From Longimicrobium sp. (GTDB lineage: Bacteria; Gemmatimonadota; Gemmatimonadetes; Longimicrobiales; Longimicrobiaceae): a stretch of DNA of 40,889 bases. Positions within the stretch are counted from its first letter, which is position 1, and each line of letters begins with the position of its first letter. Of this stretch, positions 1 to 39,315 are shown piece after piece. The stretch lies in contig DASTVC010000747.1 in NCBI GenBank assembly GCA_035759295.1, positions 1 to 40,889 on the forward strand, written 5' to 3'. A program made the translations under genes and the position numbers. Below the pieces are notes generated by a model. The model saw only the letters and a list, made by a program, of their open reading frames with translations. It had not been told where the DNA came from and did not search any database.

Positions 1-54
1 CGGGTGAACGGGTGAACGGGCGAACGGGCGAACGGGCGAACGGGCGAACGGGTG
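1..54. repeat. Octamer tandem array (CGGGYGAA)x6 plus CGGGTG, probably truncated by the window edge
   Basis: Read directly: two CGGGTGAA and four CGGGCGAA units. Same unit as the 13633-13724 array. Confidence 0.95.
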
Positions 55-6160: not shown

Positions 6161-6238
6161 AGTGCCAAGTGTCGAGTGCCTAGTCCCAAGTGCCAAGTAT
6201 GCCCGATCGTGGGCACTCGGTACTCGGCACTAGGTACT
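6161..6238. repeat. Inverted heptamer tandem arrays (AGTGCCN)x5 / (NGGYACT)x4
   Basis: Units agtgcca, agtgtcg, agtgcct, agtccca, agtgcca, agt at 6161-6198. Inverted units gggcact, cggtact, cggcact, aggtact at 6211-6238. Confidence 0.85.
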
Positions 6239-6673
6239 TCTGTTCTTCAAGTGCTCCACCAGGGCGCGCAGCCCCAGCCTGTAGCTGTCCACGCCGAATC
6301 CCGAGATCACGCCCAGGGCGCCGGCCGCCAGGTACGACCGGTGCCGAAAGCGCTCCCGGGAAAAAACGTTGCTAAGATGCACCTCCACGTACGGACGCGC
6401 CACTCCCGCCAGCGCATCGGCCAGGGCGATGCTGGTGTGCGTGTAGGCGCCCGCGTTGATCACGAAGCCGTCCGCGTCGGCCGCACGCGCCTGCACGTGG
6501 TCCACCAGGCCGCCCTCGCTGTTGCTCTGGAACGACCGTACCCCCACCCCCAGCTCGCGCCCCAGGCGCTCAAGCTCCTGGTCGATCTCGGCCAGCGTGG
6601 CGCGGCCGTAGATCTCGGGCTCCCGCCTGCCCAGCAGGTTCAGGTTGGGCCCGTGAACGACCTCGATGTTCAC
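6230..6673 (-). CDS. aroQ: Type II 3-dehydroquinate dehydratase
   Basis: HGPNLNLLGRREPEIYG, QSNSEG, INAGAYTHTS, EVHLSN, RERFRHRSY. The GTG start overlaps the upstream TGA (GTGA). Confidence 0.96.
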   Translation of the reverse strand: MNIEVVHGPNLNLLGRREPEIYGRATLAEIDQELERLGRELGVGVRSFQSNSEGGLVDHVQARAADADGFVINAGAYTHTSIALADALAGVARPYVEVHLSNVFSRERFRHRSYLAAGALGVISGFGVDSYRLGLRALVEHLKNRST

Positions 6674-9600
6674 CGCTTCAGGCTCTGCAGCCAGGCCTGG
6701 AAGCTCTCCAGGTCCTCGTCGTCCTCGTCCTGCCCGCCCGCCGGTGCGCTCGCGGCGGGCGCGGCCGGGGCCGCGGGCGGCGGCGTGACGGCCGGCTCGG
6801 GCGGCGCCACCGGCTCGAACGCCGCGCTGGGGACGAACGCCGAGGGCAGCTCCGGCTCCGGCTCCGGCTCGGGCGTCGGCTCCGGCTCGACGGGGGTCTC
6901 CGCCGGTGCAGGCTCCGCGCCGCCGCCGGCGAAGAAGTCCTCGAACGAGAACTCGCCGCCTGCGCTCGCATCCGCCGCCGGCGTCGTCGGGGCGGTGGAG
7001 GGCTCCGCGGGGAGCTCCCACGGCAGCGCCTCTTCCGGCTCGGCAGAGGACGCCGGGCTGGCGATCTCGTCCGACAGCTCGAACGAGTCGATGCTGGGCG
7101 GCTCCACGCGCGGCGCCTCGGCCCACGGCTCCGCGTCCAGGTCGAAGAGCGGGATGTCCGACTCCCCCGCCGGCGGCGCGGCGTCCGGCGCGACTTCCGG
7201 CGCGGAGGCGGCCCACGGCTCGTCCTCCGCGGTCGCGGGCTCGGCCGGTGCGTCCTCCGCGGACGGCGCGTCATCGTAGACCTGCGCCTCGGAGATCGGC
7301 GCGGCGGGCGACTCGGCCCACGGGTCGACAGGCGCCTCCTCCGACGGCGCGGCGGGCGCCTCGCTCCACGGCTCATCGGCCGCGACCGGCTCGGCGGCGG
7401 GTGACTCGCTCCACGGCTCGGCGGCGGCGGAGGGTTCGTCGGCCGCAGGCGATTCCGTCCACGGTTCGTCAGCGGCGACCGGCTCGGCGGACGGCGTGGC
7501 GTCGAACGTGGGCGCTTCGGCGGCCGGCTCCGGCTCGATCGCGGCGGACTGGCCGGGGGCCCAGGCGAGGAGCGAGGAGAAGTAGGCGCGCATCGACGAG
7601 GCGCGGGCCCCGGAGGATGCGGCCGCCGCCGCGCGCTCTTCCTCGGCGGCTTCCTCGTCATCCTCCAGCGGCGCGGCGGCGATGGCCCAGTCGGCGCTCA
7701 CGTCGGCGACCACCTCGGGCGGCGCGGCCACTTCCTCGCCGTCCTCCTCCACGACGATCAGGTCGAACCCGACGGCGTCACTGTCGCTGACGGATGGCGC
7801 CTGCCACGGCTCGCGATCCGCATCCCCCGAGCCCACCGGCGCCGCGGCGGACGCGGGCTCCGGCGCCTCGGTGCCTTCGAACCCGCCCGCGAACGAGTCC
7901 GCGAACGGATCGTCCGACGCAGCGGCGGCCTCCATCGGCGGCTGCGTGAAGTCGGCGATCGGCGCGAAGTCGGCAAGCGGCGCGGCTTCGGCGAACGCGG
8001 GCTCCGGTGAGGCGAGGTCGTCGTCGGCCGACACTTCCGCGGGGAAGTCGGCGATCACGGCGGCGGTGGCGTAGTCCGGCTCATGGACGGGCTCGTCGAC
8101 CGGCGCTTCCTCGGCGGCGGGCTCGGGCTCGACGCTCATGTGGACGGCGGCCAGGTCCGCCGCGGCGCCGCCCATGGCGAACTCATCCACCGAAGCGAGC
8201 CAGTCCGGCGCCTCCTCCTCCTCCTCCTCCTCCGCGACGGGGGCTTCGGCGGCGGGGTGCAGGCGCGCCTCGATCTCCGCCAGGCGGCGCACCAGCCCGG
8301 GCTCGTCGCCGCGCTGGCGGATGAGCTCGCGGTAGGTATCCGCCGACTGCTGCAGCAGCCCCTGCGCGGCGTACAGCTCCGCCATGGTCTCCGTCACCAC
8401 CTCGGCGTCCACGGGATGGTCCGGGTGGCCGTCATCGTCCATGTCGGCGTCGAACGCGGGGAGCGAAGGCGGTCCGCCCGCCGGGGCGGGGGAGAAGGCG
8501 GGGAAGCCGTCGCCGTGCGAAGGCGCCTCGAAGCTGGGAAAGGCGGGATCCGCGTCCAGCGGCGGCAGGCCGGCGGGGACGGTGTGGTCCGCATCCAGGA
8601 GCGGGAGCTCATCCCCCGCGACGGTGTTGTCCGCATCCAGCCGCGGGAAGTCATCCCCCGCGATGGTGTGGTCCGTATCCAGCAGCGGAAGGTCGTCCCC
8701 GGAGACAGTGTCGTCCGTGTCCAGGAAGGGGAGGTCCGCGCCGGCCAGGGGCGCGTCGAGCAGGCCGTCGTCCGCGTCCAGCGGCGCCAGCGCGCCCCGG
8801 TCCGCCGCGGCGCTCTCACCCAGGTCCTGCCGCGCGTCGGCGTCCAGCCACGCGCCCACCGCCCCCGTCTCGTCCGTCTCCGCCGGCTCTCCGCTCAGGT
8901 CCACGCTGCCGAAGCCCAGCGCGTCGAAGTCGCTCGACGATGCCGACGTGGGCGCGGCCTCGGAGGTGGAGGGGATGTCGAAGGGAAGGTCGCCCCACTC
9001 CCCCGCGTCGTCGTCCGCCGCCACGCCGGAGGCGTCCGCGGCCGAGGCCTCGGGGGTGGAGAGGTCGATCATCCCGAACTCGTCCGCGTCGCCCGCGTCG
9101 GCCCCGCCTGCCGAGGCAAGCGGCTCGGAGGCGCCGCCCCAGCCGGTGCCAAGCTGCACGGGCTGGTCGGCCACGGCCGCGTCGGCGCCGCCGCGGGCCA
9201 GCTCCTGCAGCGACACGCGGGCCTCGGCGTTCATGGGGTCCACGGCCAGCAGCTCGTTGTACCACTTCTCCGCCTCGGCCCGGCGCCCGCCGGCGGCGGC
9301 CATCTCGGCCAGCGTCCGCAGCGCGATCAGGTTCTGCGCGTCGATGCTGAGGACGTAGTGGAACTCGTTGGCCGCCTCCTGGAACGCCCCGCGGTCCGCC
9401 AGGCACCGGCCCAGCAGCACGTGGGCGCTCAGGCCGGGAAAGCGCTTGAGGTTCTCGCGCAGGATCTCTTCGGCCCGGCCGGTCTCGCCCGCCTCGCGCC
9501 ACGCGCCCGCCAGCGCCACGAAGTAGCGCCCGGGATTGTCCGCGTAGCTGCCTTCGAGCGACTGGATGCGGGCGGTAAGCTCGGGCGAAAGGTCTGCCAT
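6670..9600 (-). CDS. Large acidic TPR-containing protein with a long low-complexity region
   Basis: N-terminal TPR helices (AHVLLGRCLADRG), central TETMAELYAAQG TPR-like helix, D/E/A/P-rich linkers, C-terminal FQAWLQSLKR helix. Start MADLS at 9600 is my choice. Confidence 0.8.
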   Translation of the reverse strand: MADLSPELTARIQSLEGSYADNPGRYFVALAGAWREAGETGRAEEILRENLKRFPGLSAHVLLGRCLADRGAFQEAANEFHYVLSIDAQNLIALRTLAEMAAAGGRRAEAEKWYNELLAVDPMNAEARVSLQELARGGADAAVADQPVQLGTGWGGASEPLASAGGADAGDADEFGMIDLSTPEASAADASGVAADDDAGEWGDLPFDIPSTSEAAPTSASSSDFDALGFGSVDLSGEPAETDETGAVGAWLDADARQDLGESAAADRGALAPLDADDGLLDAPLAGADLPFLDTDDTVSGDDLPLLDTDHTIAGDDFPRLDADNTVAGDELPLLDADHTVPAGLPPLDADPAFPSFEAPSHGDGFPAFSPAPAGGPPSLPAFDADMDDDGHPDHPVDAEVVTETMAELYAAQGLLQQSADTYRELIRQRGDEPGLVRRLAEIEARLHPAAEAPVAEEEEEEEAPDWLASVDEFAMGGAAADLAAVHMSVEPEPAAEEAPVDEPVHEPDYATAAVIADFPAEVSADDDLASPEPAFAEAAPLADFAPIADFTQPPMEAAAASDDPFADSFAGGFEGTEAPEPASAAAPVGSGDADREPWQAPSVSDSDAVGFDLIVVEEDGEEVAAPPEVVADVSADWAIAAAPLEDDEEAAEEERAAAAASSGARASSMRAYFSSLLAWAPGQSAAIEPEPAAEAPTFDATPSAEPVAADEPWTESPAADEPSAAAEPWSESPAAEPVAADEPWSEAPAAPSEEAPVDPWAESPAAPISEAQVYDDAPSAEDAPAEPATAEDEPWAASAPEVAPDAAPPAGESDIPLFDLDAEPWAEAPRVEPPSIDSFELSDEIASPASSAEPEEALPWELPAEPSTAPTTPAADASAGGEFSFEDFFAGGGAEPAPAETPVEPEPTPEPEPEPELPSAFVPSAAFEPVAPPEPAVTPPPAAPAAPAASAPAGGQDEDDEDLESFQAWLQSLKR
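8548..8733 (-). repeat. Intragenic 42-bp (14-aa) tandem repeat, about 4.5 units
   Basis: LPFLDTDDTVSGDD / LPLLDTDHTIAGDD / FPRLDADNTVAGDE / LPLLDADHTVPAG / LPPLDAD. Confidence 0.85.
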
Positions 9601-9844
9601 GGACGCGTGAAGAGTGCGCGGGAAAAGCCGGGGCAAGGCTGGGAGACAGGGGGTGCAACATAAATCTGGCGCGCAACCGGTGTCAACAACGCGCGGGCCC
9701 CGGCCCCGGGTTGCGTGCCGGGTGCGGTCCAAATATCTTTGGCGGCTTCACTTTCCTGCAATCCGCAGCGGTTTCACGAATCCGGCAACCTCTCAGCCGG
9801 AGCGCCTGCGCCGCGCTCCGTCCCCACGTGGAGTTGGTTTTCCC

Positions 9845-11686
9845 ATGATGATGCAGATGATCCGGTCCAGGGCCGGCAAGATCATCGTTCCCGCCCTGAT
9901 GCTCTTCTTCCTGGGGTGGATGGTCTTTTCGATCGGAATGGACGTGCTGGGCAGCGGCTCGCTGGGCCGCCGCAACAACGTCGGCAGCGTGAACGGCGAG
10001 GCCATCTCCGCGCAGGCGTACAACGATCGCGTGAACGCGCTGTACCAGCAGGCGCAGCAGCAGGGCGAGGTTACCGAAGAGCAGACGCGCCGCATTCAGG
10101 ACGAGGCCTGGGAGCAGATGGTGCAGGAGACGCTGCTGCGCCAGGAGCTGGACCGCCGCGGCATCGGCGTGAGCGACCGCGAGGTGCTGTGGGCCGCCCG
10201 CAACCTGCCGCACCCCGGCTTTGCCCAGCAGGAGATCTTCCTGACCAACGGGCAGTTCGACATCAACAAGTACCGCGAGTTCCTGGCGGGGCCCACGATG
10301 TCGGCCGAGATGTGGGGGCAGCTGGAGCAGTACTACCGCCTGCAGCTGCCGCAAGAAAAGCTCACCCGCCAGCTCACCGCCGGCCGCTACCTGAGCGACG
10401 CCGAGCTGTGGCGCGCCTTTCAGGACCGCACCGAGACGGCCACGGTCGACTACGTGCAGCTGGACCTGACCAAGCTGGTGCCCAAGGATCCCGCGGTGAC
10501 GGACACCGAGGTGCGCCGCTACTACGAGGAGAACCGCGAGCGCTTTCGCCGCACCGAGGGCGCGCGCCTGAAGGTGGCGTACATCCCGCTCACCATCACC
10601 GAGGCCGACCGCCAGGCCACGGTGCAGCGCGCCCGCGAGCTCAAGGCCGAGATCGCCGGCGGCGCCGACTTCGCCGAAGTGGCGGCGGCCAACAGCGCCG
10701 ACGAGAGCAACAAGGACCAGGGGGGCGACCTGGGCACGTTCACCCGCGGGCAGATGGTGCCGGCGTTCGACTCCGTCGCCTTCTCGCTGCCGGTGGGCCA
10801 GGTGTCGGACCCGGTGGTGACGCAGTTCGGCGTGCACTTGGTGCGCGTGGACGAGCGCACCGGCGAGCAGGTCAAGGCGCGCCACATCCTGCTGGAGTTC
10901 GAAAAGAACGTGGCCGACGTGGACCGGCTGGAGAACCAGCTGGTCCGCATTGCCGAGGCGGGGCTCGCGCGCGGCCTCAAGGCGGCCGCCGCGGGGCAGC
11001 CCAACGTCACCTTCCGCGAGGGGGTGGAGCTGAACGCCGCCAACCCGGTGATCCCGGGCGTGGGCCCGGCCATGGCCGCGCTCAACTGGGCGCAGGAAGA
11101 AAGCGCCAACCGCGCCGCCGGCGACGACCCGGTCCGCGTGAGCGAGGTGATGGAGACGGCCGACGCGCTGTACCTGGTGGAGATTGAGAACTACCACCCG
11201 GCCGGCATCACCCCGCTGGCCGAGGCCACGCCGGCCATCCGCCAGCAGCTGGTGTACGAAAAGCGCCGCGACGCGGGCCGCGCCGAGGCGGAGAAGATGC
11301 TGGGCGAGATCCGCGCCGGGCGCACGCTGGAGCAGGTGGCGCAGGCGCGCGGCCTGACGGTGCAGCGCACGGGCCCGTTCACCCGCGTTGCGGAGAACCC
11401 CGTGCTGGGGCAGGCCAACGCGGCCGTGGGCGCGGCGTTCGGCGCCCCGGTGGGCCAGGTGGGCCCGGTGGCGGTAACGCCCGCCGGCGTGTTCCTGATC
11501 CGCCCCGTGGCGCGCACGGCCGCCGACCGCCGCGAGTTCGAGCGGCAGAAGGCCACCCAGCGCGAGCAGGCCATGCGCTCCATGCAGCAGGACCTGCTGG
11601 GCCAGTGGATGAACAACATCCGCAAGAACGCGGAGATCAAGGACGAGCGCGCCGAGTTCGCCGCCCGCGCCGCCCGCCAGAGCTGA
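9845..11686 (+). CDS. PpiD/SurA-like membrane-anchored parvulin peptidyl-prolyl isomerase
   Basis: N-terminal TM, SurA_N-like region (GSVNGEAIS), rotamase motifs GGDLG, MVPAFD, VVTQFGVHLVRV, ARHIL. Confidence 0.9.
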   Translation: MMMQMIRSRAGKIIVPALMLFFLGWMVFSIGMDVLGSGSLGRRNNVGSVNGEAISAQAYNDRVNALYQQAQQQGEVTEEQTRRIQDEAWEQMVQETLLRQELDRRGIGVSDREVLWAARNLPHPGFAQQEIFLTNGQFDINKYREFLAGPTMSAEMWGQLEQYYRLQLPQEKLTRQLTAGRYLSDAELWRAFQDRTETATVDYVQLDLTKLVPKDPAVTDTEVRRYYEENRERFRRTEGARLKVAYIPLTITEADRQATVQRARELKAEIAGGADFAEVAAANSADESNKDQGGDLGTFTRGQMVPAFDSVAFSLPVGQVSDPVVTQFGVHLVRVDERTGEQVKARHILLEFEKNVADVDRLENQLVRIAEAGLARGLKAAAAGQPNVTFREGVELNAANPVIPGVGPAMAALNWAQEESANRAAGDDPVRVSEVMETADALYLVEIENYHPAGITPLAEATPAIRQQLVYEKRRDAGRAEAEKMLGEIRAGRTLEQVAQARGLTVQRTGPFTRVAENPVLGQANAAVGAAFGAPVGQVGPVAVTPAGVFLIRPVARTAADRREFERQKATQREQAMRSMQQDLLGQWMNNIRKNAEIKDERAEFAARAARQS

Positions 11687-11708
11687 TCCTTCCCGATCCG
11701 GCCTGACG

Positions 11709-11751
11709 GCTCGAAGCCCCGCTTCCTTTCCCGGGAGGCGGGGCTTCGAGC
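11709..11751 (+). terminator. Hairpin or probable terminator after the foldase gene
   Basis: GCTCGAAGCCCCGC..GCGGGGCTTCGAGC stem 23 bp after the stop. No clear T-run. Confidence 0.55.
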
Positions 11752-11870
11752 ATCCGGCATCCACTCAAAGAGCGGGTCTCACACGGAGGGCACGGAGGAC
11801 ACGGGGAGGACCAGACATTCCCGTGACCTCTGAGGACGTTCCACTGTTCTGATGATGAGTCCCGCGAATC

Positions 11871-12091
11871 TGTCATTCTGAAGGAGGCGCCGCGCAAGCC
11901 TCTTGTTCTCGCTGCAAAGCCTGGCGCCGACTGAAGAATCTTTAGCTGGGCGGCAGAGTCTTTCCGCCGGAAGCGGTTCCCGGGCGTTGCCCGGGCACGG
12001 GTTCAGCGCGAGGGGACGGAGATTCTTCGGTCGCGCTGCGCAGTCCGGCGCGACGCCGCGGCTTCGAGGCGAGCGCTTCCTCAGAATGACA
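11871..12091. repeat. REP/MITE-like element, family B, as an inverted pair
   Basis: Left arm TGTCATTCTGA..GACTGAAGAATCT (11871-11941) and right arm AGATTCTTCGGTC..TCAGAATGACA (12020-12091). Confidence 0.85.
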
Positions 12092-12144
12092 GGTGTTTCC
12101 CCGGCTTGGGGGATGGCCTCTCTTGTTTCCTGCGGGATGCGCGA

Positions 12145-12184
12145 CGAAAGCCCTCTTCCACGCGGCGGTGGAAGAGGGCTTTCG
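12145..12184 (-). terminator. Intrinsic terminator after the DUF4321 gene
   Basis: CGAAAGCCCTCTTCCAC-loop-GTGGAAGAGGGCTTTCG perfect stem. Confidence 0.75.
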
Positions 12185-12209
12185 TTCGATGTGGATCAGG
12201 GCGCGGCGG

Positions 12210-12485
12210 CTACAGCCAGGTGCGCACGGCAAGGGCGACGACGAGAACGCCAAGGACGCTCAGGAAGTCCAGCCGCAGCACCAGCGGGCCAAGGGTAAAG
12301 CCCACCGCCACCAGGTCGATCACCAGCGGCCCGAAGGCCGCCGCGACGGACGTGGTAAAGAAGGTCCGCGCCGTGCTGTCGGGCATGAACCGCATCGCCA
12401 GCTCCGAAAGCAGCGCTCCAAGCAGCAGCCCGATCAGCACCACCACCAGCATCCGGCCCGCGCGCCGGCGTCCGCCTACGCTCAT
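12210..12485 (-). CDS. Small membrane protein, DUF4321-like
   Basis: 91 aa with hydrophobic helices and a GPLVIDLVAVGFTLGPLVLRLDFLSVLG pattern. RBS GAGGTG. Confidence 0.75.
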   Translation of the reverse strand: MSVGGRRRAGRMLVVVLIGLLLGALLSELAMRFMPDSTARTFFTTSVAAAFGPLVIDLVAVGFTLGPLVLRLDFLSVLGVLVVALAVRTWL

Positions 12486-12570
12486 CTCACCTCCCCAACC
12501 CGTTCATCTGGTGGTCGTGCGGCGTTTGCCCAGCCCGCAGGCAAGACGAGTGCCGCCCGCCCGCGAACCC

Positions 12571-13560
12571 TCAGCGCTGACGCTCTACCGCGTACACGAT
12601 GCCGTCGCGCAGGGCGTCCAGCGCGGGGCCGTGGGGCAGCCCCTCAAGCGCGTCGGCGGCGCGGCCGGCGCACTCCAGCGCCGCCTCGCGCGCAAACTCC
12701 AGCCCGGCCCGCCCCCGCACCACCTCCACCACCCCGGCGATGGACTCGTCGTCCGGCTCCGGATCGGCGAAGAGCGCGTTCACCTTGGCCCGCTCGGCGC
12801 GGGACAGGTTCGGGAGGACGGCGATGAGCGGCAGGGTGACCTTGTGCTCGCGCAGGTCCAGCCCGGTCGGCTTGCCGGTGACGGCGCTGTCGGCCGTGTA
12901 GTCCAGCAGGTCGTCGGCGATCTGGAACGCCAGCCCCAGCTCCCGCCCGAAGGTCTTCAGCTGCGCGCGGAAGCGCGGCGCGCCGGTGATGGCGCCCAGC
13001 TCGCACGCGGCGGCCATGAGCGACGCCGTCTTGGCGTCGATCAGGCGGTAGTAGTCGGCCTCGGAAAAGTGCAGCGCGTCGTGCGACGACAGCTGGCGCA
13101 TCTCGCCCACCGTCATGTCGTTGGCCGCGTTGGCCAGCACCTGGATGGGCTCGATGCGGCCCAGCCGGGTGATCTCCATCAGCGAGCGCGTATACAGGTA
13201 GTCGCCCATGATGATGGCGACCTGGTGGCTCCACAGCGCGTTCACCGTGGGCATTCCCCGGCGAAGCACCGAGTGGTCCACCGCGTCGTCGTGCACCAGG
13301 GTGGCCAGGTGCACCAGCTCCACGATGGCGGCCAGCGTCTCCGCCTGCGGGCTTGGGCGCCCCTCCAGCTCGTCGCACAGCAGGACGAGACCCGGGCGGA
13401 ACAGCTTGCCCCGGATCTTCATCAGGTACTCGTTCACCGTCTCCACCGGCGCAAAGTCGGAGACCACGATGCGCCGGATCTCGTCCACGACGTTGTCCAG
13501 GCGCTCCCGGATGGGGGCCTGGATGTCGGCGAGATGGGGAACGGCGGTGCGGACGCTCAT
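12571..13560 (-). CDS. Long-chain polyprenyl diphosphate synthase (IspB/HepT-like)
   Basis: GKLFRP, first motif LVHDDAVD..RRG, second motif FQIADDLLD, GKPTGLDLREHKVTLP. Confidence 0.93.
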   Translation of the reverse strand: MSVRTAVPHLADIQAPIRERLDNVVDEIRRIVVSDFAPVETVNEYLMKIRGKLFRPGLVLLCDELEGRPSPQAETLAAIVELVHLATLVHDDAVDHSVLRRGMPTVNALWSHQVAIIMGDYLYTRSLMEITRLGRIEPIQVLANAANDMTVGEMRQLSSHDALHFSEADYYRLIDAKTASLMAAACELGAITGAPRFRAQLKTFGRELGLAFQIADDLLDYTADSAVTGKPTGLDLREHKVTLPLIAVLPNLSRAERAKVNALFADPEPDDESIAGVVEVVRGRAGLEFAREAALECAGRAADALEGLPHGPALDALRDGIVYAVERQR

Positions 13561-13632
13561 GCGCTGGGGCTCAGGTGCCGGGCTGTGGGTCAGGTCGCGG
13601 GATTCTATGGAGGCGGACGGCGGATGTCAAAG

Positions 13633-13724
13633 CGGGTGAACGGGTGAACGGGTGAACGGGTGAACGGGTGAACGGGTGAACGGGTGAACGGGTGAACGGG
13701 TGAACGGGTGAACGGGTGAACGGG
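13633..13724. repeat. Octamer tandem array (CGGGTGAA)x11 plus CGGG
   Basis: Eleven perfect units counted. The array ends 6 bp from the stop of the four-helix-bundle gene. Confidence 0.98.
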
Positions 13725-13730
13725 GGCGGG

Positions 13731-14114
13731 CTACCGGCGGGCGGTCCACGCGTCGGGATGATTGATCATCCCGACGAGCGTGGCAAGGATGCCGTCATAG
13801 CCGCGGTACAGCGTTCCTCCAGTGTCTCGACCAAGATAGCCGCAGCGCACCGCGAACTGAATCCACACCTGCGTTTCGGCCGCCTCGGCTTCGGCATCCG
13901 AAAGCTTGCTGATGAACGAAGCACGGTAGCGGCGCTTGCGCCATGCCTCCGCCAGATTTGCGCACACCGAGCGTGAGGAGCGGCGGATTTGGTCCGTCAG
14001 CGAATAGACCTCGTGCTTCGGAAATCCTTCACTCACGTGGAAGATCTCCATCGCCGCGTCGAACGCCCTGCGATACACCTCCAGATCTCCATGCACCCTC
14101 ACCTTCTGCGGCAC
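13731..14114 (-). CDS. Four helix bundle protein (23S rRNA intervening-sequence protein / Avd-like family)
   Basis: DLEVYRRA, FPKHEVYSLTDQIRRSSRSVCANLAEAW, FISKLSDAEAEAAETQVWI..A..CGY. RBS GGAGG before the GTG start. Confidence 0.92.
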   Translation of the reverse strand: MPQKVRVHGDLEVYRRAFDAAMEIFHVSEGFPKHEVYSLTDQIRRSSRSVCANLAEAWRKRRYRASFISKLSDAEAEAAETQVWIQFAVRCGYLGRDTGGTLYRGYDGILATLVGMINHPDAWTARR

Positions 14115-14142
14115 CCCACACCTCCCCTCCCCCGTGCATGTT

Positions 14143-14185
14143 CCCGTTCACCCGTTCACCCGTTCACCCGTTCACCCGTTCACCG
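14143..14185. repeat. Octamer tandem array (CCCGTTCA)x5, reverse complement of 13633-13724
   Basis: Five perfect units at 14143-14182. The unit nearest the TPR gene contains its TGA stop (14180-14182). Confidence 0.97.
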
Positions 14186-16333
14186 CCTCGCCTTCCGCAG
14201 GCGCTCGATGCGCTGGGCGGTGTCGCGGAAGCGGATGTCGACGGAGACCACGCGCTCGTACAGCTCCACGGCACCCTCGGGGTGGTCCGTGCCCTCTTCC
14301 ACTCTGCCCAGGAGATAGAGGACGCCGATGACGTCGCCGTCGGCCACGCCGGGGAGCTTGAGGGCGCGGTCCAGCACGCGGCCGGCGACGGCGTACTGGC
14401 CCTTGTCCACGAAGCACTGGCCCAGCAGCTCCAGCGTGGCCAGGGGATTCGCGCCGCCGCGCAGCGCGACCTGGAACTCGGCGATGGCCTCGTCCACCAG
14501 CCCCAACTCCATGAAGGCCACGCCCAGGTCGTAGTGGCTGGCGCTGTCCTCCACGTCGATGTTCTCGGCCACCTTCTGGCGAAAGTGGGTGAGCATCTCG
14601 GCGAAGTCCTTGTCCTCGTCGCCGCTGGGCTCCTTTTCCTCCACCACGAAGCGCGTGCTGGGCTCGCCCTCGCCGCGCTCGTCGTCCATGATCAGCGCGC
14701 CCAGGTCCACGTAGTCGCCCGGGGGAGGCGGCGGGGGCGCGGGGGCGGCGGGCGGCGCGGCCTCGGCCTGCGGCGCGGGGGCGCGGACGAAGTGGGCCAC
14801 CTGCGCGGCGGCGGCGCGGCCCTCCACGTTGTGCGGGTCCAGCTCCAGCACGCGCTTGAAGACGGCGGCGGCCTTTTCCTCCTGCCCGTGCCGCGCCAGG
14901 TGTCGGCCCAGGTCGAGGTAGGCCTCCACCTGCGCCTCGGCCCGCCCGCTGCGGAAGGCGTATTCCACCCGCTTCTGCAGCAGGATCCCGTCGTCCGGAC
15001 GCAGGCCGATGAGCGCGGTCATGGGCGCCACGGCCTCGAAGTACATTCCGCGCGCGGCCAGGGCCCGGTGGGCGGCCTCGAGCACGTCGGGCACCTCGTG
15101 GCCCAGGCCGCGGCTGCGGAGCTCGCGGACCAGCTCTTCGCGCGACGCCTCGTCCTCGGGGACGGCGGCCACGTGGGCGCGCAGCTGGTCCAGGTTGTCC
15201 TGCTGCGCCTCGAACACCGGCTCCGGCCCGCGGCGGCGCCCCGGCGTGCCCCGCGGCTGCCGCTTGACCGGCTCCTCGTCGAAGCCGATGAGCGGCAGGT
15301 CGCCGCCGCCGCCGTCCGAAGAATCGTCTTCGTCGATCAGCAGCGGCAGGTCGCCGAACCCACCGTCGTCATCCTCGTCCAGCAGCGGCAGGTCGTCGGC
15401 GAACTGCCCGCCGTCGTCGTCATCCACCGCCTCGTCGCCAAAGAGGACGGGGAGGTCGGCGGGGCCCTCGTCCACCGCGCCCAGGCTGGTGGGCTCCAGC
15501 CCCAGGTCCGCGCCCGCGGCGGGCGCCTTGCGGGGCGGGGCGGGTGGATCGTCGACCAGGGAGGTGGATTCCAGCCCGGCGAGGGGGGCAACGCCGTCGT
15601 CCAGCGACGTGGGCTCCAGCCCCGCCACCTCGGAGAGGGCGGCGCCGGAGGAAAAGTCGCCGTCGTGCAGCGCGGCGCTGAAATCGTCGCTGGCGGCGCT
15701 GCGGCTGCGCATGAGCGGCGTGTCGTCCGCGCCGGGCGCCACGGCGCGGATCTGCTCGCGGATGGCCTCGGCGGCGGCGGGGTCGCCGTGCTGGATGTGC
15801 GCGCCCATCAGCACGCGCAGCTGCTCCACCGCCTGGTCCTTGCGGCCGTTGGCCAGCAGCTGGTCGGCCAGCAGCTTGCGGACCTCGGTGTCTTCCGGCG
15901 AAAGGTCGGCGAACTCCTTGAGCGCGTCGAAGCTGGCGTCCAGGTTGCCGGCGCGCTTCATCCGCTGCGCGTACTCCAGAAAGTTCTGGCGCGCGTCGGC
16001 CAGGAACCCCGCGGCGGCGCTGATCTGGCCCAGCTTGAGGTACACGGCCCCGCGCCCCGGCACCAGCCGCAGGATCTTGCGGCACAGCGCGATGGCGTTG
16101 TTGAACAGCCCGCTCTCGGCGTAGCTGGCCACGGCGCGCTCGTACGCCTCTACCGCGCGCTCCGTCTCGCCGATGCGCAGGTGCAGGTCGCCCACGCGGT
16201 TCCACAGGGCGATGTCCACCTCTTCGCCCGGAGAATCTTCCAGGAGCTGGCGGTACAGGATGACGGCCTCGGTCCACTGGCCGCGGTTTTCCGCGGCGCG
16301 GGCCTGGTCTTTCAGCTTGGCTGGGCTTGCCAT
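14180..16333 (-). CDS. Multi-TPR protein with an acidic linker (FimV/SgmX-like architecture)
   Basis: N-terminal TPR array, D-rich linker, C-terminal HYDLGVAFMELGLVDEAIAEFQ TPR block. Start MASPAK at 16333 is my choice. Confidence 0.8.
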   Translation of the reverse strand: MASPAKLKDQARAAENRGQWTEAVILYRQLLEDSPGEEVDIALWNRVGDLHLRIGETERAVEAYERAVASYAESGLFNNAIALCRKILRLVPGRGAVYLKLGQISAAAGFLADARQNFLEYAQRMKRAGNLDASFDALKEFADLSPEDTEVRKLLADQLLANGRKDQAVEQLRVLMGAHIQHGDPAAAEAIREQIRAVAPGADDTPLMRSRSAASDDFSAALHDGDFSSGAALSEVAGLEPTSLDDGVAPLAGLESTSLVDDPPAPPRKAPAAGADLGLEPTSLGAVDEGPADLPVLFGDEAVDDDDGGQFADDLPLLDEDDDGGFGDLPLLIDEDDSSDGGGGDLPLIGFDEEPVKRQPRGTPGRRRGPEPVFEAQQDNLDQLRAHVAAVPEDEASREELVRELRSRGLGHEVPDVLEAAHRALAARGMYFEAVAPMTALIGLRPDDGILLQKRVEYAFRSGRAEAQVEAYLDLGRHLARHGQEEKAAAVFKRVLELDPHNVEGRAAAAQVAHFVRAPAPQAEAAPPAAPAPPPPPPGDYVDLGALIMDDERGEGEPSTRFVVEEKEPSGDEDKDFAEMLTHFRQKVAENIDVEDSASHYDLGVAFMELGLVDEAIAEFQVALRGGANPLATLELLGQCFVDKGQYAVAGRVLDRALKLPGVADGDVIGVLYLLGRVEEGTDHPEGAVELYERVVSVDIRFRDTAQRIERLRKARR

Positions 16334-16657
16334 GGAACGGGCACGGGGACAAACGGCCGAGCCCGGTGAAGGCGGCGCTCGGGCACGGTATGGCGCAATG
16401 GGGGAAAAGATAGCGAATGCCCTAAGTGCGTACAAGGAACGGGGGTGCGCGGGATGCGGTGCGCGCCCCTGTCACCAAGTGCGCGGACGGATGCGGAAGT
16501 CGCGGCGGCGTGCACGGGGGATGCCGTAAGGGGCGTGGAGGCTTGGAGATGCGCGTGTAGCAGAGGGTGGCGATGGGCGTGATTCTGCGCCGTGGGCTGT
16601 GGATCAGGCGTAGGTGGAACGAGGCGCTTCGAAGGGCATCGCCGCGGGGGCGGGGTG

Positions 16658-16868
16658 CCCCTCCCCCGGCCCCTCCCCGTTCGTTCCTCACGGAGAGGGG
16701 AGAATTCGATCGCGCTTCGGCTGGCTTCCGCGCGAGGGCGCCCCCTTACTCGCCCAGGCTCGTACCTCCCCCAAAAAACCCTGGGGGAGGTGGACTTCGA
16801 TCCCGCTTCGGAAAGGTGCGTCGCACCTCCCTCCCCCACGCAGTTTGTGGGGGAGGACCGGGGAGGGG
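16658..16868. repeat. Cluster of family-D REP-like hairpins
   Basis: CCCTCCCCCGGCCCCTCCCCG..CGGAGAGGGG, ACCTCCCCCA..TGGGGGAGGT and CCTCCCCCAC-GCAGTTT-GTGGGGGAGG..GGGGAGGGG. Confidence 0.7.
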
Positions 16869-16901
16869 GGCGGCCCACCATCCCGCACCCATCCTTCTCC
16901 A

Positions 16902-16957
16902 TCACCCCGTCACCTTGTCACCTTGTCACCCGTTCACCCCGTCACCCGTTCACCTTG
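16902..16957. repeat. Degenerate octamer array (TCACCNNN)x7
   Basis: tcaccccg tcaccttg tcaccttg tcacccgt tcaccccg tcacccgt tcaccttg. Related to the CCCGTTCA unit. Confidence 0.85.
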
Positions 16958-17071
16958 AATCTTCTCCCCCCGCCGAACCGTTCAACAACGCGCGGGTACA
17001 GGAGCCCGCACGGACGGCAGGCGCGGAGCGGAAGCCCGCGCCTGCCCGTTTCTTTCGCTCCGCCCATACGC

Positions 17072-18592
17072 ATGCGCACCTTCTTTCTGCTCTTCCGGCT
17101 GCTGCCGTTCGCGCTCTCGTTCGCGCGCGACCGGCGGCGCCTGCTGTTCTGGGGGCCGCCCGCGCGCCGCAGCGAGGCGTTCCACCGCGCCCGGGCGGAG
17201 CGTCTGGCGCGCGCGATTCCCACGCTGGGGCCCACCTTCGTCAAGATCGGCCAGGTGTTCTCCGCCCGGCCCGACGTGGTGCCGGAGCCCTACCTCTCCT
17301 CGCTCAGCACGCTGACGGACCAGGTGCCGGTGGTGCCGTTCGCCCGCATCGAGCACGAGCTGGTGGCGGCGTACGGCGCGCCGGTGGACCAGGTGTTCGA
17401 CGCGTTCGATCGCGAGCCGCTGGCGGCGGGGAGCCTGGGGCAGGTGTACCGCGCCCGCTACCGCGGCGAAGACGTGGTGGTAAAGGTGCTGCGCCCCGGC
17501 GTGGAGCCCATCGTGGAGCACGACGTGGCGTTCGTGCGCATGGTGCTGCGCTTCGTGGAGCGGTGGTGGAGCCATCCGCAGCTGCGCGGCCTGCACGTGG
17601 TGATCGACGAGTTCGAGCGCCGCATCGCCGACGAGATGGACTTTCGCAAGGAGGCGGCGTACTGCCGCTCCATCGGGCAGAAGTTCGCCGCCAACCCGCG
17701 CGTCATCGTCCCCCGCGTGATCGACGGGATGGTGCACCGCCGCACGCTGGTGCTGGAGTTCGTGGAGGGGACGCGGGTGGACCGCATCGACCCGCTGGTC
17801 CAGCTCGGCGTGGTGGACCCGGAGCGGGTGGTGGACGCGGTGGTGGAGGCCTACATCCAGATGATGCTGGTGGACGGCCTGTTCCACGCCGACCCGCACC
17901 CCGGCAACCTGCTGGTGCGGGCGGACGGCGCGCTGGTGCTGCTGGATTTCGGGATGGTGATCGAGGTGGATCCCGGAATGCGCCACCACCTGGTGCACAC
18001 GGCGCTGGCGGCGGTGCGCGGCGACACCGACAAGGTGGTGGACGGGTTCTTCAACCTGGGGATCGTGGCGCCGGAGACGGATCGCGAGACCATCCGCCGG
18101 CTGGTGGGCATCATCATGGAGCTCACGGAGCGCGGCGCGGAGCTGGGTGAGATGCAGGCGGCGCTGGCGGACGAGGTGATGCACCTGCTGTACGACTGGC
18201 CGGTGGTGCTCACGGGGGAGATGACGTACTTCGGCCGCGCGGTAGCGCTCATCGAGGGGCTGGGGGCGCACCACGTGCCCAACTTCAATCCCGTGACGTA
18301 CGTGCGCCCGCTGCTGCTGAAGCACCGCATGGCCGTGCTGCGCGCGCTGGGCCCCACCGACAGCGAGACGGCGGACCTGGCGTACGCGCTGGGCCTGCTC
18401 TCGCGCGACGTGATGCGCGTGGTGGGCAACGCCGGCCGCGAGCTTCTCGGCGTGCTGGCGACGCGCATCCCTTCGGTGTTCAACGCGTTCAGTCGGCCCG
18501 CCCCGGCGGCCTCGGTCGAGGCGCCGGCTGCGCTACCGGTGATCGAGGCCGCGCAGCCGGTCGCCGCGCTGCCGGCGGGGGCGATCGAGTAA
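17072..18592 (+). CDS. ABC1/UbiB (AarF) family atypical kinase
   Basis: LGPTFVKIGQ, PLAAGSLGQVYRA, VVVKVLRPG, FHADPHPGN, LLDFGM. Confidence 0.92.
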   Translation: MRTFFLLFRLLPFALSFARDRRRLLFWGPPARRSEAFHRARAERLARAIPTLGPTFVKIGQVFSARPDVVPEPYLSSLSTLTDQVPVVPFARIEHELVAAYGAPVDQVFDAFDREPLAAGSLGQVYRARYRGEDVVVKVLRPGVEPIVEHDVAFVRMVLRFVERWWSHPQLRGLHVVIDEFERRIADEMDFRKEAAYCRSIGQKFAANPRVIVPRVIDGMVHRRTLVLEFVEGTRVDRIDPLVQLGVVDPERVVDAVVEAYIQMMLVDGLFHADPHPGNLLVRADGALVLLDFGMVIEVDPGMRHHLVHTALAAVRGDTDKVVDGFFNLGIVAPETDRETIRRLVGIIMELTERGAELGEMQAALADEVMHLLYDWPVVLTGEMTYFGRAVALIEGLGAHHVPNFNPVTYVRPLLLKHRMAVLRALGPTDSETADLAYALGLLSRDVMRVVGNAGRELLGVLATRIPSVFNAFSRPAPAASVEAPAALPVIEAAQPVAALPAGAIE

Positions 18593-18615
18593 GTCTCGGT
18601 GGGATGGCGGATGTC

Positions 18616-18699
18616 GCAACGGGCTAAAGCCCGCGGTTAGAAGGGCCATAAGCCCCGTCTCGGCTCGTTACACTCGCCGGACGGGGCTTCACCTTCTCG
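18616..18699. repeat. REP-like palindrome, family A, copy 3 (inverted)
   Basis: Reverse-complement match to 82-165 (ATAAGCCCCGTCTCGGCTCGTTACACTCGCCGGACGGGGCTTCACCTTCTCG). Confidence 0.9.
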
Positions 18700-18732
18700 C
18701 GTCCGCCGAGCCCCCGCCACCCCGAGCAAGAG

Positions 18733-18800
18733 TGTCATTTCGAGGGAGCGCCGCGCGGAACCATCTCTCACCCGAAACTCAGGGCGCGACCGAGAAATCT
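18733..18800. repeat. Family-B REP arm (single)
   Basis: TGTCATTTCGAGGGAGCGCC..GGCGCGACCGAGAAATCT, matching 11871-11941. Confidence 0.75.
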
Positions 18801-18847
18801 AGCGTCGGAATTCTCGTGGCTTTTCGGCGATCCGTGGGCCGTCCGTC

Positions 18848-18897
18848 ACAATCCGCGAAGGCGGATTTTGCAATTTTCCCGCGGCGAGTTCACTCGC
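18848..18897. repeat. REP-like palindrome, family C (TCCGCGAAGGCGGA..CGARTTCAYTCGC)
   Basis: Matches 29317-29367. Contains the stop of the phosphotransferase gene. Confidence 0.75.
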
Positions 18898-19891
18898 TCC
18901 TGGTAGGATACCGCGCCCGGTACGCGTCCAGCGCCGCGCGGTGGATACGCTCCTTCTCCGGGCGCACTTCGGCAAGATGCTCGGGGGATTCGGTGGCGTC
19001 GATCCAGTCCGCCAATGGGTCGATGATCCAGTCCAGCAGCGAGGCGCGCGCGTAGAGTCGTAGCCGCTCGCGCACGCCCGCATCCGCGGTGACGGCGGGC
19101 GGCAGGGCGCGGTCGGCGGCGGTGCGCAGGTCGCCGCGCGCGGGGCCGAAGAGCATGCACCAGTCCATCGCCGGATCGCCCAGCGCCAGGTCGTCCCAGT
19201 CCAGCACGTACCACTCTCCGCGCGGCGTCACCAGCAGGTTGTTGAGCCACAGGTCGCTGTGCGTGGGCGCATCCGCCGGCTCCGCGAACGCCGGCGCGGC
19301 CGCGACCGCCGCCTCCAGCGCCAGCGCCTCGCCGCGCATCCACTCCACCAACGCCGGCGGCACGAACGGCGGCCGCTCCTCCGTGACGAACTCCAGGTCC
19401 GCGATGAAGCGTGCGTGGTAGGTGCCGCGGTACACGTCCGCGCACGTCGCCTGCACCGCGGGAAGGTGCGCGGCAAGCTCGTGATCGCCGTGCAGCCGGT
19501 CCATCGTCCGCACCACCTCCGCCGCCAGCCGCTCGTCCAGCGCCTCCGGCGGCGCCCCGTCGATCCATCGCGACAGCACGCCCGCGTAGCCGGAGCCGGG
19601 CACGTCGATCCACGCCAGGGCGCCGGGCGCGTGGTACCGGTCCGACATCATCTCCCGAAATCCCCAGAACCGACGCAGTGCATCGAGGATCTCCCGATCG
19701 TGGGCGAGCTTCAGGTGCAGCCGCGCGCGCCCGTCCGTCACCTGGAACGAGCGGTTTACGAAGCCGCCCCAGTTCAGCACGTACTCCACCCGCAGCCGCG
19801 CCGCATCCAGCCCCAGCTCCGCGGCGCGCGATGCGAGCTGTTGGTGGACGAGCGACTGCAGACGGGGCAGGTCCATCGGACGATCGATCAT
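18890..19891 (-). CDS. Aminoglycoside phosphotransferase / choline kinase-like protein
   Basis: GGFVNRSF N-lobe, LHLK, HSDLWLNNLL (Brenner motif), LDWD, GDPAMD. Confidence 0.8.
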   Translation of the reverse strand: MIDRPMDLPRLQSLVHQQLASRAAELGLDAARLRVEYVLNWGGFVNRSFQVTDGRARLHLKLAHDREILDALRRFWGFREMMSDRYHAPGALAWIDVPGSGYAGVLSRWIDGAPPEALDERLAAEVVRTMDRLHGDHELAAHLPAVQATCADVYRGTYHARFIADLEFVTEERPPFVPPALVEWMRGEALALEAAVAAAPAFAEPADAPTHSDLWLNNLLVTPRGEWYVLDWDDLALGDPAMDWCMLFGPARGDLRTAADRALPPAVTADAGVRERLRLYARASLLDWIIDPLADWIDATESPEHLAEVRPEKERIHRAALDAYRARYPTRSE

Positions 19892-32997: not shown

Positions 32998-33088
32998 TCA
33001 CGCGGAGGCGCGGAGGAACTGATGAGGCGCGGAGGAGTCTCGATCTTCCCTCCGCGCCTCTCCCTTTACCTCCGCGTCTCCGCGTGAA
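32998..33088. repeat. Inverted 9-mer repeat element, family E (CACGCGGAGGCGCGGAG / CTCCGCGTCTCCGCGTG)
   Basis: Both arms visible. A related single arm (CACGGAG units) lies at 11779-11808. Confidence 0.7.
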
Positions 33089-37605: not shown

Positions 37606-37824
37606 CCTTCGGCTCAGGTTATTCGGCTGGATGAGCGCGTTTGGTGAATTTTACATCCGAAAATGATTGTGCAGAAGGGGCTGTGATCGCTCGCGCGATT
37701 TTCTGTCCGAGTTGCTTCTCGCCCGAAGCTCCTTGCTCACAATTCAAAGTCTGGCGATGTTCTCTCCGTCCAGCATTTTGTTGCTTCAGGTGAAGATGAG
37801 AGCGAGATCGGAGGGTGCGTGACA

Positions 37825-37956
37825 ATGCCAGAGAAACGCGAGGTGTCGGCCGAGATGACGGAGGATGCTGCTCTGGTAGTTGCGATCCAGGAGGGCGAGA
37901 CGAGCGCCCCCGTCTCGCGAGAGGATGTCTTCGACGAATTGGAAGCCCGCGCGTAA
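37825..37956 (+). CDS. Small acidic antitoxin-like peptide (43 aa)
   Basis: Manual translation MPEKREVSAEMTEDAALVVAIQEGETSAPVSREDVFDELEARA*. RBS GGAGG, and the TAA overlaps the next ATG (TAATG). Confidence 0.5.
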   Translation: MPEKREVSAEMTEDAALVVAIQEGETSAPVSREDVFDELEARA

Positions 37957-38276
37957 TGGCGATGGCCAACAGCAATCGGAAGCTGCTTTCGATCCATCCG
38001 GGCGAGGTCTTGATTGAGGACTTCCTGGTTCCGCTTGGTTTGTCGCAGTATCGGCTCGCGCAGGACCTCAGCGTTCCTCCGCGCCGCATCAACGAGATCG
38101 TCCACGGGAAGCGCGCGATCACTGCGGATACGGCGCTGCGGCTGGCGCGCTACTTCGGGACGAGCGAGCAGTTCTGGCTCAACCTGCAGTCGCGCTATGA
38201 TCTGGATGTGGAGCGGGACCGGCTGGGTGCGCGTCTGGAAGAGGAGGTTACTGTCTTCGCGCCGCAAGCGGCATAG
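37956..38276 (+). CDS. higA: HigA-family addiction module antidote (HTH)
   Basis: IHPGEVLIEDFLVPLGLSQYRLA, RINEIVHGKRAITADTALRLARYFGTS..FWLNLQ. Start is 37956 or 37962. Confidence 0.92.
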   Translation: MAMANSNRKLLSIHPGEVLIEDFLVPLGLSQYRLAQDLSVPPRRINEIVHGKRAITADTALRLARYFGTSEQFWLNLQSRYDLDVERDRLGARLEEEVTVFAPQAA

Positions 38277-38381: not shown

Positions 38382-38699
38382 GACGGTCAGGCACATGCGC
38401 TCCCCGCCTAAACACGACAGCCGCAGCCAACTCTGGCCCGCGGCTGTTCGCTTCGTCGCCCCCTGCTCGCTCCCAGGCGTCACACTCGCTGCCTGCGAGA
38501 GCCTGGTGGCGAACTAAGCCCTTGGACTCGGCCCAGGCGCCAGAGGCGGCGCGGGCGGTGCGCAAGTCGTCGGCAAACTCCAGCACGGCTTCAGCGACCT
38601 GCGGGTCCATCGCGAGCTCGTCGGCGCTGGTGCAGCGGTTGAGCTTGATGGTGGAGTGGCCCAGCGCCTCGAAGACGCCGAAGCGGTCCGTCAGCATCT
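38382..38699 (-). pseudogene. Direct repeat copy 1: 5'-truncated duplicate of the 39424-39693 gene plus its hairpin
   Basis: Matches 39332-39641. Lacks the first 18 codons, and the stop TGA has become TGG. Confidence 0.85.
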
Positions 38700-38701
38700 G
38701 G

Positions 38702-38730
38702 TTGACGCGATGCGAGGTATGATGTATTAT
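38702..38730 (+). promoter_or_regulatory. Sigma70 promoter for a leaderless toxin-antitoxin transcript
   Basis: TTGACG-17-TATTAT, 6 nt before ATG 38737, with no RBS. Confidence 0.7.
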
Positions 38731-38736
38731 CCCACC

Positions 38737-38979
38737 ATGCCTAAGACCAAAGTCGCCGTCACGCTTGAAGCCGGGCTCCTGGACGAAGTCGATGCGCTGG
38801 TGAGGCAGCATCGGTTCGCCAACCGCAGCCAGGCAATCGAAAACGCCGTCTCCGAGCAACTCGCGCGGCTGCATCGTACGCGGCTGGCTGAGGCGTGCGC
38901 GTTGCTGGACGCCGATGAGGAACGCGCGCTTGCGGAAGAGGGGCTGGCTGCGGACGTGGAACTCTGGCCGGAATACTGA
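38737..38979 (+). CDS. CopG/RHH antitoxin (MazE-like partner)
   Basis: MPKTKVAVTLEAGLLDEVDALV..FANRSQAIENAV, acidic tail ending in WPEY, immediately before the toxin. Confidence 0.88.
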   Translation: MPKTKVAVTLEAGLLDEVDALVRQHRFANRSQAIENAVSEQLARLHRTRLAEACALLDADEERALAEEGLAADVELWPEY

Positions 38980-38982
38980 GTC

Positions 38983-39315
38983 GTGCGCATTCGTCGTGGG
39001 GAAATTCGGTGGGCTGATCTGGATCCGGTGCGTGGACGAGAGCAGGCTGGGCGCCGGCCCGTGTTGATCCTGAGCGCCGACGTTTTCAACGACCGCTCTG
39101 GGACAGTGATCGCCGTCGCCGTCACAAGCCAGCCACAGCGAGCTCCCTATCCGCTCACGCTGGAGCTTGAGTCGGCCGATCTGCCGAAACAGTCGTGGGT
39201 CAAGATCAGCCAGATCCGAACGCTTGCGGTGGAACGCATCGGCGACCTCCTCGGCACGGCGTCTCCTGAGGAGCTTGAGCGGGTGGTCGATGGACTGACA
39301 GAGATCATCGGCTGA
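38983..39315 (+). CDS. mazF: PemK/MazF family endoribonuclease toxin
   Basis: RRGEIRWADLDPVRGREQAGRRPVLILS, AVTS, SWVKISQIRTL. Confidence 0.93.
   Translation: MRIRRGEIRWADLDPVRGREQAGRRPVLILSADVFNDRSGTVIAVAVTSQPQRAPYPLTLELESADLPKQSWVKISQIRTLAVERIGDLLGTASPEELERVVDGLTEIIG

Follow-up and report, generated by a model that had tools for sequence, protein, structure and literature searches.

A four-helix-bundle gene between complementary octamer arrays in Longimicrobium: an insertion and probable movable DNA element

In the 40,889-nt stretch of Longimicrobium DNA analysed here (the window), a single gene for a four-helix-bundle protein lies between two complementary 8-base tandem arrays, at the 3' end of a TPR gene and before the promoter of a prenyl synthase gene. 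This cassette is an insertion, because most of the orthologous junctions in the genus are empty and all array-bearing ones fall into a single clade. The cassette is likely a movable element of DNA, and not RNA cut out by RNase III, and its protein likely recognises its own repeats, an activity predicted here. The explanation that we favour, tentatively and a little short of an even chance, is a selfish DNA system resembling REPIN/RAYT with a non-catalytic Avd-like protein, whose binding and mobility are predictions.

Organisation of the cassette

The cassette and its neighbours are as follows, in the order of transcription.

14180-16333, minus strand: upstream host gene, TPR protein (ORF list, profile searches)
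14143-14184, minus strand: 5' arm, G-rich period-8 tandem array, 5.2 copies (Tandem Repeats Finder, read directly)
14115-14142, minus strand: short purine-rich leader between the 5' arm and the start codon (direct reading)
13731-14114, minus strand: 127-aa four-helix-bundle gene (TIGR02436/PF05635) of the octamer-arm clade (ORF list, profile searches)
13633-13724, minus strand: 3' arm, 11.5 tandem copies of a C-rich octamer, the 5' arm in reverse complement (Tandem Repeats Finder)
13602-13630, minus strand: sigma-70-like promoter of the prenyl synthase gene, host DNA also present in empty alleles
12571-13560, minus strand: downstream host gene, polyprenyl synthase (PF00348; ORF list, profile search)

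An earlier note on this DNA had described inverted octamer arrays around the 127-aa gene, and this description holds: both arrays are perfect (100% matches in Tandem Repeats Finder) and, read directly, the 5' unit is the reverse complement of the 3' unit (5 vs 11 units). The stop codon of the TPR ORF (14180-14182) is indeed within the first unit of the 5' array, and the last codons of the TPR gene differ from those in empty alleles. The leader likely holds a ribosome-binding site, judging from its letters. On the transcribed strand of 13600-14220 the arms are predicted to pair as a single stem of more than 40 pairs with the gene in the loop (z = -6.8 vs 20 shuffles), in agreement with the stem of about 40 bp noted previously. 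Thus, terminal inverted repeats around an S23p-family ORF are present in the cassette. In an Rfam search of 11000-19000 no RNA match was found near the cassette, and its flanks are the TPR and prenyl synthase genes, not an rRNA gene.

The cassette had been placed inside a housekeeping operon. It does sit between the TPR and prenyl synthase genes, but the downstream gene has a sigma-70-like promoter with 11/12 consensus matches (13630-13602), starting 3 nt beyond the 3' array; the scan found 2 such promoters vs 0.2 expected. As the same hexamer pair is also seen in empty alleles, the prenyl synthase gene likely has its own promoter, and therefore the cassette is not inside one operon, so the earlier placement is right only in part. 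Arrays in general show only a weak tendency to abut a -35 box (8/95 vs 98/2608 control sites), and this idea was dropped.

The encoded protein

The 127-aa protein passes the cut-offs of TIGR02436 (91.9 bits, cut-off 24) and PF05635 (97.9 bits, cut-off 33.8), and its structural model (pLDDT 95.2) has four long helices, consistent with the four-helix-bundle identity first read from the sequence. The model matches 2gsc (TM 0.82, rmsd 1.3) and the Avd structure 4dwl (TM 0.75, E 0.066); it resembles Xcc0516 and BT_0352, with a weaker likeness to Avd, so that the fold proposed to be common to the family and Avd is recovered. A sequence search against structures matches 2gsc and 2rld only. Both of these have five chains each, and by analogy with them the protein may be a homopentamer; by analogy with Xcc0516 and Avd, it would form a pentameric nucleic-acid-binding barrel. 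The Avd profile scores (24 bits, cut-off 80, and 21.4, cut-off 40) are below both cut-offs. Domain matches are limited to PF05635 and a weak bAvd, without a Y1 tyrosine transposase domain.

The gene is under purifying selection, with dN/dS of 0.057-0.09 vs 0.056-0.074 for prenyl synthase in the same genome pairs. Compared with prenyl synthase its GC3 is lower (0.75 vs 0.95) and its dS is higher.

Distribution of the cassette in the genus

The genome of the window (G000: 6.58 Mb, 941 contigs, 82% complete) was compared with others of the genus. Prenyl synthase was found in 35/37 genus genomes, and 30 loci were retrieved for comparison of the junction. The junction is empty in 19/30, where the TPR stop leads straight into the promoter, and filled in 2/30 (G000 and G018). 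Four of the 30 have octamer remnants round palindromes, which by their appearance we take to be REP-like, three have a heptamer pair without a gene, and two (G022 and G041) are broken by a contig end at the 3' array. In a midpoint-rooted tree of synthase DNA the array-bearing junctions (11/30) form a single clade (support 94/93). The cassette is thus a compact insertion with empty sites, as had been proposed. No target-site duplication is visible against the empty alleles, which are distant (76-84% prenyl synthase identity).

In G022, a TPR end and cassette are found on another contig (C251; L291/L297, L037), where the next gene is not the one that follows it in G000 and G018; in G000 that gene adjoins a different array. 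An assembly misjoin through repeats is as likely here as real recombination between arrays, and this cassette was left out of the filled class in the tally of 30 loci.

The protein clade of the window is found in 4/37 genus genomes and, among nine close genomes, at three sites: this junction, G000 C54/G018 C179 and G015 C462. The octamer array is present in many copies in 9/37 genomes, with one weak match in a tenth and none in the other 27. The nine octamer-rich genomes are a clade of the synthase tree (support 97/96) that includes all four protein carriers, and five of the nine have no detectable gene (completeness 76-95%, one at 95%). Within the genus, this coincidence of array with protein goes back to a single event.

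Arms and protein clades across phyla

The nearest relatives were taken as the best 80 of at least 576, with windows 600 nt away as controls and a stem threshold score of at least 14. Among these best 80, stems are found in 61 vs 0/63 control windows, upstream arrays in 63 (58 of period 8) vs 2/71, and downstream arrays in 52 (46 of period 8) vs 7/72. The flanking stems are not due to chance, and the expectation that inverted arrays flank homologues is borne out.

For the whole family, 30 relatives' genomes were searched, with 150 of 180 matches listed; 30 loci and 100 further stretches were taken, to which 20 stretches from a separate search were added, and a FastTree phylogeny was made of 239 distinct proteins. 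The window's clade comprises 94 rows (support 90): period 8 in 70, period 7 in 5, another period in 4 and no call in 15, that is, period 8 in 70/79 calls. The other 145 rows have period 7 in 104, period 8 in 14, another period in 6 and no call in 21 (period 7 in 104/124 calls). The unit period therefore co-varies with protein clade, a relationship that the earlier note had raised for the unit sequence, with the reservation that the rows are related and the genomes were selected for holding the window's clade, so that Fisher significance is overstated. Octamer rows come from ten named phyla, across which the unit letters drift while period 8 stays. In 21 of the 25 genomes that hold both kinds, the window's clade has period 8 and the others mostly 7. 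In a sister branch of the family in the same genus, 7- and 8-base arms occur at one orthologous site with similar proteins.

Stems scoring at least 14 are found in 168/239 family rows. A gene's own arms pair better than same-group arms from other loci in 82/89 cases in the window's clade and 131/139 in the second group. Complementarity is thus kept between the two arms of each copy.

The flanking ORFs are unrelated, with 132 crudely picked ORFs falling into 107 clusters; as the largest cluster has only 4 members, a travelling partner gene was rejected. At one other site, family genes point against both neighbours. Selection of units for stop codons in all frames was also rejected (39/82 distinct upstream units hold a stop vs 33.8 expected from shuffles).

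A divergent branch in another family of the order (L028-L031) has 6-base arrays in three loci and 7-base arrays in the fourth. In five further loci (L069, L074, L077, L112, L126) the best array just downstream of the gene is G-rich and not the complement, which suggests nested or tandem elements.

Arrays and gene-less pairs in the genome

G000 holds 498 arrays of period 7 or 8, 91 of them with the window's unit; 43 of the 498 are at contig ends. It has three family genes, all flanked by inverted G-rich/C-rich arrays (one heptameric, two octameric), and no additional, decayed family genes were found in it. After merging to 469 arrays, and with gene positions that rest on a purpose-made gene caller, the outer side faces a stop in 253, a gene start in 172 and an edge in 44; 210 of the 253 stop-facing arrays are within 20 nt of the stop, and 28/469 are centred in genes. 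Neighbouring arrays up to 1500 nt apart (n=112) run G-rich to C-rich in 57 cases, C-rich to G-rich in 6 and in the same direction in 49, with the G/C label being unreliable for balanced heptamers. Gene-less inverted doublets thus occur in many intergenic copies (57 vs 6; 28/469 genic), as in REPIN/RAYT.

Inspection by eye of the 22 G-rich to C-rich pairs with 80-420 nt between the arms found a gene in three. Of the 19 gene-less pairs at this spacing, 8 combine arms of different unit families, and these mixed pairs are therefore not the product of simple whole-element copy-and-paste. Two G000 sites, C538 and C710, carry a short pair without a gene, whereas relatives (G011/G017 and G003) have a family gene between related arms there; gene-less counterparts of gene-bearing sites do exist. 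In sequencing run X1, possibly from the sample that gave the window, the cassette gene is covered by one 472-nt contig. The single joint across the arms has depth 2 and 26 other letters, and most probably represents a pair without a gene from elsewhere. RNA runs, searched as small shares, do not cover the gene.

Many G000 pairs contain palindromic repeats between the arms. REP-like palindromes of several families lie in the window at 80-170, 11870-12100, 16700-16880 and 18610-18900 and in many G000 intergenic regions, often stacked between the arms of gene-less pairs. Compound arrays, in which two unit families are joined head-to-tail on one strand in either order, were seen in G000 contigs C58, C66, C600, C658, C766 and C815, among others, and look as if units had been added or converted in place. 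G000 has three Y1_Tnp (Y1 transposase) genes, all on contigs other than that of the cassette. No reverse transcriptase was found in G000 (82% complete), and no match was found in the viral contigs searched.

Three further places in the window carry arrays.

1-52, plus strand: G-rich octamer arm of the same family without a gene, at the edge of the contig, with a REP-like palindrome after it (Tandem Repeats Finder)
6161-6238, no strand assigned: inverted pair without a gene, of a different (heptamer) family (Tandem Repeats Finder)
16902-16957, plus strand: C-rich octamer arm of the same family without a gene, upstream of an ABC1/UbiB-like gene

The junction at 6161-6238, between genes that we take from their sequence to be aroQ and efp, has an inverted pair in 30/30 genus loci (L305-L334; short and degenerate in G043) and a family gene in none. 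Close relatives differ in whether the arms belong to a heptamer or an octamer family, with both arms changing in step, and shared spacers suggest that alleles have also been exchanged between species. The arm near 16902 is present, without a gene, in 2 of the 24 genus loci with a full start; the other 4 of the 28 loci were partial. The view that the arrays at 6161 and 16902 are derivatives of the cassette is thus not supported; they are members of the repeat system.

A second small-gene-plus-repeat system is represented by the GxxExxY (TIGR04256) loci L004 (G000 C588) and L005/L006 (G000 C896, where the copy is in two pieces), both bracketed by short inverted repeats of a separate kind, with a period of about 9 bases. 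Gene-less repeats resembling the GxxExxY brackets lie in the window at 11781-11804 and 33001-33085. Two TPR proteins of the window (6670-9660 and 14180-16333) have long acidic low-complexity middles, and the latter scores 93.9 bits against the type IV pilus protein SgmX, far below the cut-off. Judging from their sequence, the ORFs at 37815-38276 and 38656-39315 resemble an antitoxin of HigA type and a toxin-antitoxin pair of PemK/MazF type.

RNA excision or DNA element

The earlier note regarded the cassette as an intervening sequence of mRNA. On this model the two arms would base-pair once transcribed, and an RNase specific for double strands would excise the gene, as RNase III does for 23S intervening sequences. 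The predicted stem of more than 40 pairs speaks for such a model, and a Coxiella element with a 28-bp terminal stem is cut by RNase III in vitro (PMC4990558, available in part). However, a sequence search did not find RNase III in G000 or in any of the 37 genus genomes, nor in any of 41 order genomes, five of them single-contig and 27 at least 90% complete, a divergent enzyme being possible in both sets. All 8 control genomes gave a match in this search, as did 29/30 other carrier genomes, where cutting may happen as a side effect; the sole miss among these 30 is G061, of the Longimicrobiaceae. No mention of RNase III loss in the host group was found in the literature searched, and a whole order without it would be notable in itself.

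The mismatches in the stems also bear on this model. On the gene's strand, G-T numbers 56 vs 58 for A-C in the window's clade, and 44 vs 51 in the remaining family, so that there is no G-U excess and selection on an RNA strand was rejected. The two kinds of mismatch are equal in the window's clade, which is what arms maintained as DNA would be expected to show. Further against RNA excision, the downstream gene has its own promoter-like site, family genes can point against the flanking transcript, and the model offers no route to new DNA sites. Taken together, we consider it improbable.

Discussion

Under the REPIN/RAYT-like reading, the cassette is likely the gene-bearing member of a selfish repeat system with few gene-bearing copies and many gene-less ones, the gene-less pairs being putative non-autonomous copies. 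The protein would read its own arms as DNA rather than as an RNA stem, and likely helps arm-bounded elements to spread to gene borders via host enzymes. A host enzyme would do the chemistry, because no catalytic site is known for this fold and the gene has no partner that moves with it. We count in favour of this reading the empty junctions (19/30) and the single clade of the 11 with arrays; the protein in 4/37 genomes at three sites, with all carriers inside the nine-genome octamer-rich clade; the clade-specific period, also within genomes (21/25), and the better pairing of own arms (82/89). Also counted are the equal G-T and A-C mismatches, the unrelated flanks and the gene opposed to both neighbours at another site; the stop-facing arrays within 20 nt (210/253) and the hundreds of gene-less arrays at gene borders; and the gene-less pairs at C538/C710, the dN/dS of 0.057-0.09 and the matches of the model to 2gsc and Avd 4dwl. 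Counted against it are the linkage of arms and gene, by which co-inheritance alone can give agreement between unit and clade, the match in the genus being one event with 5/9 array-rich genomes lacking a detected protein, and the 7- and 8-base arms at one sister-branch site. In addition, 8 of the 19 gene-less pairs combine different unit families, no target-site duplication, reverse transcriptase (in G000), partner gene or viral contig match is visible, and several sites are old and vertically inherited.

Two other explanations give the protein a different part. In one, unlikely but credible, the protein is a host-serving regulator: bound to its repeats beside genes, in DNA or in RNA, it would influence termination, translation or the stability of RNA; its own arms would be a feedback site, and arrays would spread by slippage and conversion. 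Such a regulator would not be expected to be patchy (4/37 genomes) and at unrelated sites, with array-rich genomes that lack a detectable gene copy, 19/30 relatives without arrays at this junction and arm mismatches without strand bias. It does fit the strong purifying selection on the gene and the persistence of the 6161-6238 pair in 30/30 genus loci though the unit changes. The polarisation of arrays to stops and starts, as for the heptamers of Xanthomonas and Nostoc (PMC4692102, available in part), and the translational role proposed for Beggiatoaceae heptamers (PMC4679880, likewise in part) also speak for it. In the other, which we hold to be unlikely, the protein is a passenger, inert toward the repeats. 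The gene would have come in with its arms in one horizontal transfer, and the arrays would owe their spread and their uniformity to slippage, template switching and recombination by the host. Linkage alone then explains the agreement of unit and clade, but if nothing reads the period, it is difficult to see how period 8 could last across ten phyla despite drift of the letters. Mixed-family pairs, head-to-tail compound arrays, period switches at fixed sites and the 5/9 array-rich genomes without the gene all suit a passenger, whereas both the conservation of the gene and the presence of two arms at nearly every gene copy (3/3 in G000; stems of at least 14 in 168/239) are left unexplained.

The literature already covers, one by one, the protein family, the elements in rRNA and the dispersed arrays of heptamers. 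The cassette resembles the ORF-bearing 23S rRNA intervening sequences of Coxiella burnetii and Leptospira (S23p; PMC4990558, available in part) in having a PF05635 gene that is looped out by inverted repeats at the ends, an arm with short tandem repeats, and a patchy, likely horizontally gained distribution; in the Coxiella element, heptamer repeats precede the S23p gene (same source). It differs in lying between protein genes, with 8-base arrays, no Rfam RNA nearby and no RNase III found in the host order, and its gene is conserved, while the S23p gene there is decaying. Heptamer arrays of Xanthomonas and Nostoc have the G-rich strand just past stops and the opposite strand before starts, with inverted pairs in Xanthomonas (PMC4692102, accessible portion). 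These and the Beggiatoaceae heptamers (PMC4679880, accessible portion) are intergenic short tandem arrays like those in G000, which have the same polarity; unlike them, G000 has period 8 besides 7, and several families per genome. In the main text of PMC4692102 'helix bundle' does not occur, and 'four helix', 'S23' and 'intervening' do not occur in that of PMC4679880, so that neither connects its repeats with the gene in these terms.

With REPIN/RAYT (as described in the available part of PMC3337134) the system shares a small number of gene copies, each between repeats of its own, a large number of inverted intergenic pairs that lack the gene, and long persistence in lineages. RAYT is a tyrosine transposase, whereas here there is a four-helix bundle without a known catalytic site, and tandem arrays take the place of palindromes in the arms. 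The same fold (4dwl, TM 0.75) is found in Avd of diversity-generating retroelements, a pentameric barrel without catalytic activity that supports a polymerase and binds a stem-loop of RNA (bioRxiv 10.1101/2023.10.23.563531). By this precedent, the fold can serve as a non-catalytic nucleic-acid-binding polymerase helper. However, the protein is below the Avd cut-offs and no reverse transcriptase was found in G000, and it does not qualify as the Avd of such a retroelement.

No link of the family to inverted tandem arrays between protein genes was found in the literature searched, which held few subscription journals and no supplements. The present analysis adds four results: the period control within genomes, the coincidence of array and protein across the genus, the failure to find RNase III and the absence of any G-U signal. 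On a wider view, which is possible but more doubtful than the favoured reading, TIGR02436 proteins would confer specificity on a widespread and so far undescribed class of selfish DNA. Each clade would read tandem arrays of its own period (8 here, mostly 7 elsewhere), and host enzymes would write or move arm-bounded elements at gene borders, without a nuclease of the element's own or RNase III. The unexplained families of heptamer and octamer repeats in bacteria would then stem from this class, and the rRNA intervening sequences would be copies that landed in rRNA genes.

The absence of detectable RNase III in the host order separates the cassette from the only known processing route of its rRNA relatives, and so directs attention to DNA. 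The clade-specific period implies that octamer-clade and heptamer-clade proteins, often in one genome, should prefer different arrays. A very common protein family of unknown function is tied here to the short tandem repeats that crowd the gene borders of many bacteria.
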